A stretch of 63,575 bases of DNA, the filler included, from Acidimicrobiia bacterium (GTDB taxonomy: Bacteria > Actinomycetota > Acidimicrobiia > Spongiisociales > JAHEDJ01): NCBI GenBank assembly GCA_029210695.1. It is 5 parts of 5 records of this genome, joined end to end, with 100 filler letters (N's around TTAATTAATTAA, not from the genome) between each part and the next. Parts side by side here need not be neighbours in the genome. Positions count along the whole stretch, not along the records: positions 14,190 to 28,076 come from JARGFH010000079.1; positions 28,177 to 41,764 come from JARGFH010000080.1; 3 more parts are not named here. One strand, written 5' to 3'. Below, piece after piece: positions 27,001 through 33,000 of the stretch (positions are counted from its first letter, which is position 1; each line of letters starts with the position of its first letter). A program made the position numbers.

Positions 27001-30000
27001 ACTTGCGCAGGCAGAAGGAATGGTGCGGGACGTGATCGATTCCTCCCCGTTTCTGAACCCCAACCGTCTCTCCGATGATGTATCCAGTTCGGGTCATCCC
27101 GACATTCTGCAGCCGATATTCGAATCGAGCAGGGCCACAATGAAACGCACGGTCCTCGATGTATCTGGTGTGTTCCCGCCTCGTCACGGTGTTCTTCACG
27201 GGCGTGATCTCGGATACGACAACCGGCGCAACTCCACGAAGGCGCTCATCGCCCTGACCGAGTTGGCAACCTTCTGCCAAGCCCAACTGGTCCGGGCGGA
27301 AAAGGACGGAACACTCGAGGATCTCGACCGGCAGGCGTTCGGAAGTGCATAGGTGCCATAGGACGCACTGCGGTAGATCTCGATCAGGGTCGTCGCTCCG
27401 ATGTTTGCTGCTGGATACCCCCATGCAGTCCAGATCGCCAGATATGCGCCATAAAGAACGGGCCCCTGATCCGAGCCGAACGAGGCCTGTTTGGTTGTCA
27501 AGGGGTGTTTTGGGCGCGGTGGAGTGCCTTGCCGGATCGGCAAGCTCGGTGGTGTGGGCGTAGGCTGGGGGTTGGCCCGGGGTGGCTTTGTGGAAGAGCC
27601 GGCGCTTCAGGATGCAACGCCGGACACGCACGCGACAGAGACGTTCCTGGGTGCCCCCCGGGCCCTAACGCTTTTGGTCGGCGACGAGGTGGCGGTAGAC
27701 GACGTCAGAGAGGCGCCGTTTCAGTGACCGGATGGCTTCCTTCTTCGTTTTGCCTTCAGCGAGTTTACGTTCGTAGAAGATGCGTCCCTCAGTTCCCGGG
27801 TAGCGGAGTTGGGTGATCGCGATCAGATGCAGCGCATGGTTCAACATGCGGTTGCCTCGCGGGTTGAGCCGATGCCGCTTCTTCGACCCGGAGGAGGCGT
27901 CGATGGGGGCGGTGCCGTTGTAGGTGGCATAGTGGTGCCGGGTGGGGAACCTGGTGATGTCGCCGCTGTAGCCGATCACCAGGCCGGCTACGACCGGGCC
28001 CACGCCGTAGATGTCGGTAAGGGTGGTGCCCGACGCTGCCACTGCGGTGGCCAGGTTTGCCTTTGACGCTTTGAGTNNNNNNNNNNNNNNNNNNNNNNNN
28101 NNNNNNNNNNNNNNNNNNNNTTAATTAATTAANNNNNNNNNNNNNNNNNNNNNNNNNNNNNNNNNNNNNNNNNNNNGATCGAAGCCACCTGGGCTGAAGC
28201 TGTCGTTCAGACCTGTGTGATCCATCTGCTCCGTGCCTCGTTCCGTTACGGCTCCAATGATGACCGCAAGAAGATAGCCGCCCAGCTGCGGCCCATCTAC
28301 ACAGCAGCCACGACCGACGCCGCCGAGGCTGCCATGGCCGAATTCGAAGCAGGGCTCGGACAGAAGTATCCGGCGATCGTCAGGCTGTGGCGAGACACCT
28401 GGGAGACGTTCATCCCCTTCCTGGCCTACCCGTCGGAGATCAGACGGGTGGTGTATACCACCAACATGATCGAATCGATCAACTATCAGCTACGCAAAGT
28501 GACCAAGAACCGGGGACATTTCCCCACCGAACGGGCAGCCCTCAAACTGCTCTACCTGGCAACACGTAACATCACCACCAAGAGAGGAGGAGAAGCGGGC
28601 ACAGGAACACAAGGATGGAAGGCCTGCCTCAACCAGCTGGCCATCTACTTTCCCGGACGAATCAACATCGTCTAAATGACCACCGCCACCCACTTACACA
28701 GAATCCCTGACAGGCCCCGAGCAAGGTGACTGCGTTGAGGACCGTCCGGCGAACATACTGGCCGGCGCAGATCGCCTTGGAACCGACATCGGAGATCGTC
28801 AACGAGTTGAAGATGGCACCGCCTCTGAGATAGCGGTCGTGGATCCAGTCGGACTGTTGCCACACTCCCGGTGCCGATCCCACCATCGGCAACGGCAACC
28901 GTTGAGAACCAGAAGACGGTTGCCTCGACTGGCGGGTCACACCTGCCTGGGTAAGGATCCGTTCGATCGTTCGCAACCCGGGGATCGGATCGATGTTGTC
29001 TCGTTCCATCGCCGCCACAATCGACAAGCCACCCACCGAAGCCACCGGATCCGCTTTGAGACGATCCCGATACTCCAATACCAAACCGACCATCACCGCC
29101 GGTGTCTTCGTGGGCCGTTCCAACGGTGCGGTGGACCGGCCCACAAGGCTTTCCCCAGCATCGGCCCGCTGTTTCCATTTCGAGAGCCATCGTCGGGAAC
29201 GGCCCACACGGTTCGCAGCCGCCCCAACTCCCAGACCCTCTTCGTCGATCAGCCGAAGCGCCTCCACTCGACGCTCCACCTCAGACTCAAACTCACCAAC
29301 CACAACATGCCTCCTCGCACGATCAGAGGAACGATGTCATGGCGGAACAGAGGAACGATGTCCTGGCGGTTCCCCCCTACTGCCTACGGCCTACTGCCTA
29401 CTGCCGTTCTCAATCCGTGTGTCTCTGACTCCAGGAGTGCCGGTCGGTTCAAACCAGAACGCGAAAACTCTCCCTGGTTGTGCCAAAAACTTCCTGGTCA
29501 CGTCATTGACCCGCTGGTAGGTTGGTTTTCCGAACCCCGGTCTGGAGGAAGGAGCTGAGGTGAGTGACTGGCAGACGGATGCCCTGTGCAGGGGCAACCA
29601 TTCGCACCTGTTTTTCCCGCCCAGTACGTTCGAGCGCAAGGATGAACGCGAGCGGCGAGAGGCTCGGGCCAAGGCGATCTGCCAGGTTTGCCCCGTAGTT
29701 GGTGCGTGCCTGGAATATGCCGTTCGTATTCGCGAACCGTACGGCATTTGGGGGGGACTTACCGAGCCCGACCGACGGTCGGTCGCTCAGCCGGCCTGAA
29801 CCGTCCGAACATCACCGTCCCGCTCCGTGACGCCGTTGGCGTCCATCCATTCGAGGAGCGGGACGGCGTATTTCCTGGACAGTCCGAAGAGATCACGAAA
29901 CTCGGCGACCGTGAACGGACCCTGCATCGCTCGAATGCGCTTTGCCAGGGCGTCGAGTTGGTCGGGCAGATAAACCAGTTCGGGGCCGACCCGGATGATC

Positions 30001-33000
30001 CTCCGGTCACGCAGAAGGGCATGCAGGAGATCCGGATCTATTGGTAGTTCCTTGATCCGGGGGACGGTGAGCCCCGCCGACTGCAGGCTGCTGCGGAGGT
30101 TTTCCCATTCGCCTTCCCGGCCGGCATCGAGGCCTCCTTCGAAATCCACCCCGGCGACCGTGGCCCCGTCGTCCCGCAGATCTCCGCTTCGGGCGATCAG
30201 CACTTCGAGAGAGTCGAGGTCGATCCCCAGCCCACTTGCCAGGCTGGCCTTCTGGATGCCCGGCCGCAGTGGATTCCCACCATGGAAAGAGCGAACCAGG
30301 CCTACCGCGCGGGAAGTCAGCTGCTGGGCCAGGGTGTGGGCCATTGCGCGCTGCTTCACCACGACGGCATCTGCCGGTTTCCCACCTCCGGAGTGAGCCG
30401 ACAGTCGGGCGAGATCCTCGATCTTGCGCGAATCCAGGAGTGCGCCGGCCAGGGCATCGGGCCCCCGTCCCAAGGCGTCGCGCAGCTTTGGGAGCGATGC
30501 AAGAACGTCCGGGCGACGCGGGCTCGGGGCCGGATCGAGGACCCGGCCCCCTCCGACGACGGCCCGGCGCCCAGTCTCGCGGAGGATGAAACGATCCCCG
30601 GCGACGACCGGAATCCGTTCAGGCAGGCGGAGGAGGGCAGCTCCCGGTCCCGTCAGCGCAGCATCTTCAATGAGGCGTAGAGTGACCGGCCAGGAACCGG
30701 ACCCTAGGTGCAGGTGAAACGCACCACGATTGGTCAGGGGATCCTCGACGTAGCGGGCCGGCCGGACGTCGACGAGCAGCGTGTCGCTGGGCGCCCATTG
30801 GCCCGGAATCCCGAGCATGTTGCCCCGCTGAACCTCCCTGCGTTCGAGTCCTGCAAGATTGATGGCGCAGCGAGTTGCCGGCGGAACCGAGTCGAGTTCC
30901 GTTTCGTGCGACTGGAGTCCGCGTACCCGCACCTCGTGGCCTCCCGGCCAGAGCTCGAGACGGTCGCCTAGACGGACGGTTCCGTCGGTGAGGGTGCCGG
31001 TCACGACGGTCCCCGCCCCCGAGATGGTGAACGCCCGATCGATCCAGAGTCGCGCCCGGCCGTTGGGCTCGAGACTCCGGCCCGCTTCATCCACGATCCG
31101 AACGAGATGGTTGATTAGCTCGTCGTACCCCTCCCGGGTCGGCGCGGCCACGGGAACGAGTGGAGCCCCGGCAAATACGGTCCCCTCCAGTTGCTCTTCT
31201 ATCTCGAGCATTGCGAGTTCGAGGAGATCGTCGTCGACCCGGTCCCGTTTCGTCACTGCTACCAGCCCGTGCCGCACGCCGAGCAGGTCGAGGACGGCCA
31301 GATGCTCCTCGGACTGAGGCATCCAGCCCTCGTCGGCTGCGACCACGAGCAGCGCTACGTCGATCGCTTCAGTGCCGGCCAGCATGTTCTTGATGAATCG
31401 TTCGTGGCCGGGGACGTCGACGAATGACACTTCGGTCCCATCGGGAAGCGTCGTCCAGGCGAACCCTAGGTCGATGGTTAGACCGCGACGTTTCTCCTCA
31501 TCCCAACGGTCGGGATCCCGGCCGGTCAATCCTTCGACCAGTGTGGACTTTCCATGGTCGACATGCCCGGCGGTGCCGATTACCGGCATGCAGACTCCAG
31601 CGCCGCCAACAGGGCGTCGTCGTCGGCCTCCGGGACAGCGCGAAGATCGATTATCAACTCGCCGGCATCACGCCTCGCTACCACCGGCGGTTCGGCGGCG
31701 AGGAGTCGATCCCAAACCAGGTCGACGGTGACCCCGTAGATGGCGAGAACCGGCGTCGGTAGCTCTGCTCCCGGCACCGAGCCGGCACCCGGCACAGAGT
31801 TGCTCTGACGAATCTCTCCACCGGCGACTCCCTGGAGACGTGTGAGCCGCGGCCGGAGTTGCTCGTCGGATTTCGTTGCCATCGACCAGAAAGGGATCTC
31901 GGCGCCGCGTCCATCGGCGTAGATCTCCAGAGTGGCGGCCAGGGCGGCGAGATTAGAGCCGTCGATGCGAAGCGCTCGGGCGATGGGATGTGTCGACATC
32001 GTCTCGATGGCCCCGGCAGTTCCGACGACGATGCCGGCCTGGGGACCGCCGAGGAGCTTGTCCCCCGAGAAGGTGATCACATCGGCTCCGGTCGCTAGTG
32101 CCTGCCGCACGCCCGGCTCACCTCCGAGCCAGGTGGGTGGTGGGCCATCCAGCCATGGAACGTTGTCGTCGAGCAGCCCCGAGCCGATGTCGAACGCGAC
32201 CGGGACCTCGTGGGCCCGTCCGATCTCGACCAGATCGGCGAGCGGAGTGTCCTCAGCGAACCCCATCACGCGGTAGTTCGAGGGGTGGACCTTCAAGAGC
32301 AGGGTGGTGTCGGTAGTGATGGCACGTTCGTAGTCGGATCTGCGGGTACGGTTGGTCGTTCCGACCTCGACCATGCGGGCGTGACTGGCCGCCATCAGCT
32401 CGGGCAACCGGTAGGAGCCACCGATCTCGATCAACTCGCCTCGCGAAACGGGAACCCGGCCGTCGCCTCCAATGGCTGCCAGCGTCAGGAGCAACGCACC
32501 CGCATTGTTGCCGACCACCATGGCCGCCTCGGCACCGGTCAGATTGCGGAGGAGATCTTTCACGTAGGCGCCCCGCCCACCTCTGCTACCGGTGGTGAGG
32601 TCGAATTCGAGGTTGCCGTATCCGGTGGCGGCCAGGTGGGCCGCATCGGCAGCCGCGGGCGCAAGGGGGGCCCTACCGAGATTCGTGTGCAACAGAACGC
32701 CCGTCGCATTGAGCAGGCGGTGCGGCTTCGAGCGGCTTGCTCTCGAGAGCCTGTCCGCCGCCAGGGCAGCGGCGTCGGCTTGTTCGCCTGCAGTGATCAG
32801 TTGGCGGGCCTCATCGATCGAGCGGCGCACGATCTCGGTAACCAGGCCCACCGGAAGCGGAGAGTTGATCTGGCGAACCAGAGCGTCGACGGAGGGGAGG
32901 TGCCGCAGCATGCAAATAGCCTAGACATGCTCGTATTCTGTGGATATATGTTGATGCTGGCTTTCATCGTGGTCCCGGTTGCAGAGCTGTACGTCCTGAT

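Follow-up and report, generated by a model that had tools for sequence, protein, structure and literature searches.

In Escherichia coli, selenocysteine (Sec) is inserted with the products of selA, selB, selC and selD, and the SECIS of fdhF has a GGUC loop with a bulged U. The same four components, including a SelB with a C-terminal winged helix, are seen in the Acidimicrobiia bacterium analyzed here, and its hairpins likewise lie just 3' of UGA, with GGUC, GGUU or GUU loops. It differs from E. coli in having fifteen target genes, most of them for redox proteins, and in the short form of its FdhA.

Within the class, Supplementary Table S2 of Peng et al. (2016, ISME J) gives 15 selenoproteins for Ilumatobacter coccineus, 10 for I. 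nonamiensis and 7 for Ca. Microthrix parvicella. The class, the Sec trait and the order of size of the selenoproteome (15 here) are shared with the present genome, whereas those bacteria are cultured and this one is uncultured and belongs to a different genus; the consulted table gives counts only, not families. Peng et al. quote "selenoprotein-rich" as at least 6 selenoprotein genes, and in the available part of their main text the only such groups mentioned are Deltaproteobacteria, Clostridia and Synergistetes. According to the accessible part of a recent preprint (bioRxiv 10.64898/2026.04.03.716425), Actinomarina, also of Acidimicrobiia, has universal selA, selD and selC and a Sec-containing SelD, as here, but its 1.1-Mb genomes are each predicted to encode about 5 selenoproteins, compared with 15 in 3.9 Mb here.

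The survey's finding, from which this analysis started, framed the selenoproteome as exceptional for its lineage. This framing does not hold, because selA has orthologues in 275 of the 401 Acidimicrobiia genomes sampled, 9 to 13 of these selenoprotein genes are shared by congeners, and the counts for Ilumatobacter and Microthrix, including the 15 of I. coccineus, were already tabulated in the supplement. The accompanying statement that actinobacteria usually have FdhA as their only selenoprotein agrees with the rows consulted in Table S2 for bacteria outside Acidimicrobiia, which are mostly 0 to 2. The result is mostly a sound correction of annotation; large sets are known for the class and most of the families are catalogued.

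The window is the whole stretch of DNA analyzed (63,575 nucleotides) and consists of contigs C157, C158, C160 and C161 linked by N runs. On its minus strand, selB is located at 29787..31589 and selA at 31580..32911. SelB, a selenocysteine-specific elongation factor of 600 aa, scores 327.9 bits against NCBIfam TIGR00475 (cut-off 242.25), and its Pfam architecture is GTP_EFTU, GTP_EFTU_D2, Beta-barrel_SelB and SelB-wing_3 (residues 554-596), the last being the C-terminal winged-helix domain. SelA, an L-seryl-tRNA(Sec) selenium transferase of 443 aa, scores 434.2 bits against TIGR00474 (cut-off 267.9), covering positions 1-454 of the 455 in the profile, and 367 bits against Pfam SelA. Because selA overlaps the start of selB by 10 nt, the two genes make up a single operon. 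The other components are on other contigs. The tRNA-Sec gene (anticodon TCA) is at C66:20099-20193 on the minus strand, found by ARAGORN and by Rfam RF01852 with 73.3 bits. SelD scores 404.9 bits against TIGR00476 and is itself a selenoprotein, with U in the motif GSGUACK. All components of the Sec-decoding trait (SelA, SelB, SelD and tRNA-Sec) are thus found in this genome, and the full pathway reported by the survey was recovered gene by gene with profile and tRNA searches.

The selB-selA operon of the window very probably serves ordinary bacterial Sec insertion in this marine member of Acidimicrobiia. SelD would make selenophosphate, SelA would convert Ser-tRNA(Sec) to Sec-tRNA(Sec), and SelB would bring Sec-tRNA(Sec) to the ribosome when its winged helix binds a SECIS hairpin beginning about 11-20 nt past the UGA. 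At least 15 genes, all on other contigs, would be decoded via this route. The machinery genes, the open frames, the conserved TGA codons, and hairpins that are enriched and covary are observed; Sec insertion itself and the role of each protein are predicted.

Twelve of these genes were listed earlier as known selenoprotein types, and each of them is an open frame with exactly one in-frame TGA and zero other stops; translation table 11 ends each frame at this TGA. An independent genome-wide TGA screen found all 12 again, together with three more, encoding a MerB-like lyase (C159:56397-57158, TGA at 56940), a DUF1573-like secreted protein with a GCU motif, and a radical SAM protein with a CUAEP tail. 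This yields 15 genes; the count had been put at 16 or more, and the sixteenth gene was not recovered by the screen. The twelve are short-form FdhA (Sec site RTUHAPS), SelD, a SelW/Rdx-like protein, an AhpD-related protein with the CFYU motif, an orphan PrdB/GrdB-like protein (UPDCC), three Prx-like/SelL-related proteins (Prx144, Prx132 and Prx151), three secreted TlpA/ResA-like redoxins (Tlp101, Tlp30a and Tlp30b), and a deiodinase-like protein. Most of the 15 probably act in thiol-type redox chemistry or bind soft metals, with Sec in place of the reactive Cys. With 15 genes, 14 of which have the TGA conserved in other genomes, the number exceeds the six quoted for selenoprotein-rich organisms, and the reading as a true Sec decoder with many selenoproteins is upheld.

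The family assignments of the twelve were upheld by Pfam and NCBIfam profile searches, and Pfam domains span the U in 10 of them as well as in the MerB-like and DUF1573-like genes. The AhpD-related protein scores 276.4 bits against AhpD_rel_CFYUT (NF041238, cut-off 175) and keeps ECFYUVLSH in four of four orthologues; it belongs to this family. The SelW-like protein scores 64 bits against CXXU_selWTH (cut-off 34.2). The radical SAM protein has a Cx3Cx2C motif, CRYRCRHC, and the tail motif WFCUAEP, and it scores 496 bits for rSAM_CUAEP (NF040546), whose cut-off is 500. FdhA, with 644.1 bits against TIGR01591 (cut-off 666.25) and a match beginning at profile position 50, is short of both the model cut-off and the N-terminal Fe4S4 domain; the FdhA proteins of congeners start likewise. 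The PrdB-like protein is below both cut-offs (120.1 against 300 for TIGR04483, 45.4 against 65.45 for TIGR01918), and the Prx-like proteins score 46-90 bits for SelL_rel, under its cut-off of 120. Prx132 has ATT at the start site of its congeners, and no ATG, GTG or TTG is present there.

In the parts consulted, Zhang & Gladyshev 2008 (GOS) and a 2026 AEM review (PMC13188914) catalogue the AhpD-related (NF041238), deiodinase-like, SelW-like, Prx-like, thiol-disulfide isomerase-like, orphan GrdB/PrdB-like and DUF1573 (OS_HP2) families. The catalogued DUF1573 entry has a UGC/UxC motif, whereas the protein here has GCUPP. For the terms searched in the available text of these two sources, neither the CUAEP radical SAM protein nor the MerB-like branch was found. 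The CUAEP radical SAM protein is already an NCBIfam model (NF040546).

It could be considered that not every in-frame TGA of the set is a Sec codon, some having arisen by nonsense mutation, in pseudogenes or through consensus errors in the metagenome assembly. Such TGAs do occur in this genome. A full HisC match (TIGR01141, 292.5 bits) contains a TGA at C66:42279 where four of four congeners have TGC, and no hairpin follows; either a nonsense mutation or a fault of the assembly is taken to explain it. An extra QTMAN_N-like copy, seen in no congener, has a TGA at C98:5316 where its paralogue has W, and two further TGAs, one in Glucodextran_N (C181:61491) and one at C92:46492, are at W-like sites. 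For the selenoprotein set, this explanation is improbable, with a small chance that it applies to some members: the frame is open and coding downstream of the TGA, and 14 of the 15 genes keep the TGA in 2 to 26 other species despite diverging flanks. Of the 12 listed genes, 11 keep it in all same-genus orthologues covering the site. The TGA is kept in five of five for the PrdB-like gene, Prx132, Tlp101 and Tlp30a, in four of four for SelD, SelW, the AhpD-related gene, Prx151 and Tlp30b, and in three of three for Prx144. FdhA keeps it in three of four, the fourth being a Cys form with 41% identity. Among the three added genes, TGA is kept in 13 of 13 relatives of the MerB-like gene, down to 32% identity, and in both relatives of the DUF1573-like gene; the 29 best-scoring homologues of the radical SAM gene in the order, fetched as loci, comprise 26 with U and 3 with Cys.

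The hairpins also argue against errors and for Sec insertion. To be counted, a hairpin needed a perfect stem of at least 6 bp and a loop of 3-6 nt with GU toward the 5' side, and its loop had to begin 16-37 nt from the U of UGA. Such a hairpin follows 13 of the 15 Sec codons but only 13 of 389 control TGAs, which are in-frame TGAs flanked by coding signal on either side (Fisher p = 1e-15); over all such TGAs, it follows 832 of 23545. Orthologous Sec sites have it in 75 of 87 cases. In the radical SAM family, stem differences come as paired changes around a conserved GGU/AGUU loop. Since the hairpins sit within coding sequence, part of their conservation is due to the protein. At the AhpD-related and Prx132 sites, a perfect 6-bp hairpin is absent both in this genome and in all nine orthologues; Prx132 has a hairpin with a GGUC loop and a single bulged base.

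In favor of such an error, the deiodinase-like gene is without a TGA-bearing relative in the genomes searched. Consistent with the original caveat, no homologue was found in six same-genus genomes, and among 100 genomes of the order there is no TGA-bearing homologue and only one Cys-form relative. The gene is surrounded by sequence, 7.7 kb or more in all, that five congeners lack. Its candidacy as a Sec gene comes from the Pfam T4_deiodinase (PF00837) match across the U in FGSYTUPHF (65.7 bits against 27), the Cys-form relative, and the 6-bp hairpin after the TGA. Its score against NF038285 (deiodinase_rel) is 167.8 bits, with a cut-off of 250.

Another possibility is that the selenoprotein contigs derive from other organisms and were mis-binned with the selA/selB contig. 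The bin has 181 contigs, and selAB, selD, tRNA-Sec and the selenoprotein genes are all on different ones. Mis-binning is nevertheless very unlikely, as the genome is estimated at 97.85% complete and 0.38% contaminated, 14 of the 15 genes and selA have 62-98% identical orthologues in selA-bearing genomes of the same genus, and the first 7.3 kb of the deiodinase contig is 91% identical to a congener. A genome-wide reassignment of UGA, for example to Trp or Gly, could account for the few TGAs aligned with W of paralogues, but is hardly credible when about 1000 well-supported ORFs stop at TGA with another stop shortly after, paralogues and homologues have Cys opposite the conserved in-frame TGAs, and the Sec pathway is complete.

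The screen behind the count of 15 Sec genes gave 403 candidates, of which 314 were scanned with Pfam and the other 89 read by eye only. Beyond the listed genes, the scanned candidates showed a domain across U only in the MerB-like and DUF1573-like genes. On inspection, C100:40675 (USP), C181:86908, C137:5928, C124:3480, C44:19379, C112:36629 (DsbA-like, ending in C-TGA), C163:10548 (GCUG-like tail) and C170:44977 (proC, with a strong GGUC-loop hairpin 3' of the stop) turned out to be adjacent gene pairs, shadow frames or ordinary stops, as did the remaining picks made by a nearby Cys or hairpin. Six-frame scans of the genome for AhpC-TSA and Thioredoxin gave no additional TGA-bearing member, and a regex search gave no TxxU form of Bcp/PrxQ.

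Sec-unaware gene callers cut the 15 genes and their orthologues in the genus at UGA, and therefore the redox and metal-handling capacity of this lineage of common marine actinobacteria is under-annotated. The set adds to the evidence, available from Ilumatobacter (the consulted 2016 supplement) and Actinomarina (the part of the 2026 preprint seen), that aerobic marine Acidimicrobiia are selenoprotein-rich, beside the anaerobic groups featured in reviews.

The freshest part of the set, and the strongest candidate for experimental work, is the MerB-like family with its one or two Sec residues. The protein matches Pfam MerB (PF03243) with 66.1 bits against a gathering score of 27, at residues 36-154 of a 192-aa window and across U. 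Aligned to the PDB MerB chains (1S6L/3F2G), it keeps Cys96, while Asp99 is Glu and Cys159 is Sec. With these two replacements and 42 bits against the NCBIfam MerB models (NF009710/NF033555, cut-off 193), it is not MerB proper. The SAO locus encodes another MerB-like selenoprotein, SaoL (NF040728; Haft & Gwadz 2022 bioRxiv, as far as consulted), which shares the MerB fold and Sec at the position of catalytic Cys159. SaoL is from anaerobic Firmicutes and has a CU dipeptide, whereas the family here has the motif FRU[AS]xMNLFRSEEH and is, going by the titles of its records, mostly of Acidimicrobiia and Dehalococcoidia. The identity as SaoL was rejected, the score being 27.3 bits against a cut-off of 140 and FRUA standing without a CU dipeptide. 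The neighborhood of the gene has no mer or SAO genes, and the family was not found in the consulted content of NCBIfam release 20, the family table of the 2026 review (PMC13188914) or the GOS paper. It can tentatively be speculated that the gene belongs to a broad, always-Sec family separate from SaoL, possibly of organometal-carbon lyases (for example, methylmercury-cleaving) of oxic marine and soil bacteria. Standard merB surveys would miss such a family, because databases cut it at UGA. In 80 of 80 relatives, TGA occupies the position of Cys159, and 34 of the 80 have it at that of Cys96 too. By the taxon names of their sequence records, the members in Acidimicrobiia include sponge-associated lineages.

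The 63.6-kb window joins, by runs of N, at least four contigs of one metagenome-assembled genome (181 contigs, 3.91 Mb; estimated completeness 97.85%, contamination 0.38%). Contig C160, which begins at window position 28177, carries two genes of the selenocysteine (Sec, U) pathway. selB (window 29787–31589, minus strand) matches TIGR00475 at 327.9 bits (cut-off 242) and contains GTPase domains; residues 554–596 of its product correspond to the C-terminal SelB winged-helix domain. selA (window 31580–32911, minus strand) matches TIGR00474 at 434.2 bits (cut-off 267.9). The 10-nt overlap between selB and selA indicates one operon. 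The tRNA-Sec gene is located at C66:20099–20193 (minus strand), with the anticodon TCA predicted by ARAGORN and 73.3 bits to Rfam RF01852. selD is at C94:13557–14612 (minus strand; TIGR00476, 404.9 bits), and SelD has its own U in the motif GSGUACK. These matches confirm the Sec pathway reported in the survey's finding. None of the neighbors of selB and selA is Sec-related: a Mutator-type transposase fragment comes first, then genes for FxsA, an MBL-fold protein, an M23 peptidase and an Mrp/ApbC-type ATPase. The transposase fragment (window 28217–28675, plus strand) is C-terminal, corresponds to positions 255–372 of the 379 in PF00872, and lies at the very start of C160, 1.1 kb from selB.

Twelve genes had been named as carrying an in-frame TGA: FdhA, SelD, a deiodinase-like gene, a SelW/Rdx-like gene, an AhpD-related gene, a PrdB/GrdB-like gene, three Prx-like genes (Prx144, Prx132 and Prx151, after their contigs) and three TlpA/ResA-like genes (Tlp101, Tlp30a and Tlp30b). 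All are indeed otherwise open frames with exactly one TGA each. In 10 of the 12, a Pfam domain spans U: AhpC-TSA/Redoxin in the six thioredoxin-fold proteins, CMD, Rdx, T4_deiodinase and Molybdopterin. The U of SelD precedes the AIRS domain, as expected. For the PrdB-like gene, Pfam gives no match at 1e-5, and TIGR04483 gives 120 bits, under the model cut-off.

The TGA codons were compared with the site-covering orthologues in five genomes of the same genus (G288, G294, G409, G413 and G417). TGA is retained at the aligned position in all orthologues of PrdB-like, Prx132, Tlp101 and Tlp30a (5/5 each), SelD, SelW, AhpD, Prx151 and Tlp30b (4/4 each) and Prx144 (3/3), and in three of four for FdhA, where the remaining one is a Cys form only 41% identical. 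The retention described earlier for Prx144, SelW, SelD, PrdB-like and AhpD thus holds. FdhA of this genus (C103:34852–36747; congener loci L138–L140) starts at TIGR01591 profile position 50 and therefore does not have the N-terminal Fe4S4 segment. A NuoE-like gene is seen downstream, and in the genome studied here a dispersed repeat is located just 5' of FdhA.

A genome-wide screen was started from every in-frame TGA with an upstream start codon and at least 25 downstream codons, in total 23545 sites. Keeping only sites whose frame outscored the other five in codon usage both before and after the TGA left 403, with all 12 listed genes among them. The Pfam scan covered 314 of the 403, the remaining 89 were inspected by eye, and all 403 were checked for nearby Cys, paralogues and hairpins. 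Two more genes with a domain across U are a MerB-like gene (C159:56397–57158, TGA at 56940; PF03243, 3.9e-18) and a gene for a secreted DUF1573/HYDIN-Ig-like protein (C177:5363–5851, minus strand, TGA at 5545) with the motif GCUPP. A separate screen aimed at Sec near the C-terminus gave a radical SAM gene (C103:40920–42278), whose product ends with WFCUAEP and matches NF040546, the "CUAEP/CCAEP-tail radical SAM (seleno)protein" model, at 496 bits (cut-off 500). All three passed the test of conservation. Among 100 genomes of the order, all 13 MerB-like homologues retain the TGA, with identity down to 32%, and the DUF1573-like TGA is retained in 2 of 2 congeners. Of 29 radical SAM homologues, 26 have U and 3 have Cys at the site; the 29 include L103 (G406) and L109 (G402) from genomes flagged as unpublished.

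The 12 listed genes and these three bring the count to 15. The survey's finding had claimed at least 16; our screen recovered its twelve named genes and found no 16th, and six-frame AhpC-TSA and Thioredoxin family scans of the genome gave no further TGA-bearing member. The count of 15 comes from a screen blind to genes with a non-canonical start or a weak coding signal, and Prx132 suggests that a gene with a non-canonical start could escape it. Upstream of the truncated start used previously, Prx132 (C132:14673–15428; locus L068:274–1026) lacks any ATG, GTG or TTG. Its congeners have an ATG start within RR(T/P/F)M(Q/K)A(P/A)DF, and the same codon is ATT here. This ATT is either a rare start codon or the remnant of a lost start.

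Hairpins resembling SECIS elements follow most of the Sec codons. They were defined by a perfect stem of 6 bp or more that includes at least 3 G-C pairs, a loop of 3–6 nt with GU near its 5' side, and a loop start 16–37 nt from the U of UGA. This distance range and the requirement for G in the loop reportedly come from bSECISearch. Such a hairpin is found after 13 of the 15 Sec codons; among the 389 other screened TGAs the number is also 13 (Fisher p = 1e-15), and among all 23545 listed TGAs it is 832 (3.5%). The loops are GGUC(N), GUC, GUU, AGUUG, GUG and CGUGC. In Prx132, a GGUC loop caps a stem that contains a one-base bulge, and AhpD has only a weak hairpin. Across orthologues, the hairpin is present at 75 of 87 Sec sites. 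Stems of the radical SAM family show paired changes, such as GCCGCC/GGCGGC, GAGGGCC/GGCCCUC and GCGGACC/GGUUCGC, while the GGU or AGUU loop stays constant, which argues for selection on the RNA. In the MerB-like family, the conserved LFRSEE motif is encoded by the hairpin itself, CUCUUCC-GGUC-GGAAGAG.

Ordinary bacterial Sec insertion is the most likely mechanism. SelD, SelA and tRNA-Sec would produce Sec-tRNA(Sec), and the winged-helix domain of SelB would bind the hairpin and bring Sec-tRNA(Sec) to UGA. All the parts are present, along with the conserved codons and the enrichment of hairpins. The actual insertion of selenium and the function of each protein are predicted from sequence. In most targets, U occupies the position of the reactive Cys of thioredoxin-fold, AhpD, Rdx or metal-binding proteins (UxxC, CxxU and CU motifs), a pattern that suggests roles in redox defence and in the chemistry of soft metals in an oxic marine cell.

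Several in-frame TGAs of this genome are not Sec, so the presence of one is insufficient evidence by itself. The full-length HisC gene (C66:41772–42884, plus strand; TIGR01141, 292.5 bits) has TGA at 42279, at the Cys position within LYLCNPNNPTG. The four congeners all read TGC at this codon, and the site lacks a downstream SECIS-like hairpin. A nonsense change or a consensus error is the probable cause. C101 carries another hisC-like gene. An extra QTMAN_N-like copy (C98:4956–5678, plus strand, TGA at 5316) is specific to this genome and absent from the congeners. Its TGA, like those at C181:61491 (Glucodextran_N) and C92:46492 (one of a 79%-identical paralogue pair), lies inside a conserved domain where W is seen in paralogues or expected. 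These four TGAs are probably nonsense changes or assembly errors.

The deiodinase-like gene has no homologue in six genomes of the same genus, which bears out the reservation attached to it before. Its one relative among the 100 order genomes is a Cys form, 33% identical. The domain match, this relative and a 6-bp hairpin suggest that it is a selenoprotein gene. In a DNA search, the first 8 kb of the stretch used from its contig match the congeners (91% identity to G409). The following part, C100 ~34180–41911 (locus L009:8000–15732), spans at least 7.7 kb and contains the deiodinase-like gene along with a USP gene. It is missing from the five congeners and is therefore strain-specific DNA.

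The MerB-like gene is the least catalogued of the 15. Its Cys, Glu and U align with Cys96, Asp99 and Cys159 of solved MerB chains. It is not SaoL: it reaches 27.3 bits on NF040728 (cut-off 140), lacks a CU dipeptide, and has neither SAO nor mer genes in the inspected neighborhood. At least 566 relatives turned up when a single genome of each species was scanned. Among the best 80 of these, TGA is at the Cys159 position in 80 and at the Cys96 position in 34; because one of the two search patterns was MNLFRSE(E/D)H, the motif whose coding sequence also forms the hairpin, Cys forms could have escaped the search. The record titles mostly name Acidimicrobiia and Dehalococcoidia, with some Deltaproteobacteria, Binatia and Chloroflexia. 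Relatives with a second TGA at the Cys96 equivalent (WYGQUGxE), whose products would thus contain two Sec residues, are loci L086–L090 and L093 from the order and 34 of L235–L314. The copy studied here has Cys at that position. The branch was not found in NCBIfam release 20, and it does not appear in the portions available of the literature, including PMC13188914, Haft & Gwadz 2022 (bioRxiv) and Zhang & Gladyshev 2008 (GOS).

As a whole, the survey's finding is correct and well documented, and the selenoproteome is of an already known kind, since selA is common in the class, the set is genus-wide, and comparable sets and families are on record. selA is above the cut-off in 273 of 401 sampled class genomes (275 at E ≤1e-30), four of which are flagged as unpublished (G212, G250, G275 and G389), and the positives include 1-Mb genomes of one family (f12). 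The congeners share between 9 and 13 of these 15 genes; thus, the set belongs to the genus. In Table S2 of Peng et al. 2016, known selenoproteins number 15 in Ilumatobacter coccineus, 10 in I. nonamiensis, 7 in Ca. Microthrix parvicella and 0 to 2 in most other Actinobacteria; the main text, in its available part, calls only three other phyla selenoprotein-rich. About five are predicted per Actinomarina genome (bioRxiv 10.64898/2026.04.03.716425). According to the available parts of reviews including PMC13188914, the largest bacterial selenoproteomes have 57–63 genes and the families exceed 110. The families listed in PMC13188914 include AhpD-related NF041238, deiodinase-like, SelW-like, thiol-disulfide isomerase-like and DUF1573, and Zhang & Gladyshev 2008 (GOS) describe marine GrdB-like and OS_HP2/pfam07610 families. 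One congener (G413:C145:3628–4056) has an in-frame TGA within an AhpC-TSA match. No TGA-bearing counterpart was seen in this genome, and the selenoprotein content therefore varies within the genus.

A short dispersed repeat is found right after the stop codons at many intergenic sites, such as C66:29222, C115:22674/22792, C11:11512, C103:23501, C145:6638 and C118:2598/14088. It occurs in tandem pairs and in both orientations, its in-frame peptides are of the kind FSAMQWRVVIPSIAEK or RNAMDRDAPLYCGE, and it looks like a REP-type element.
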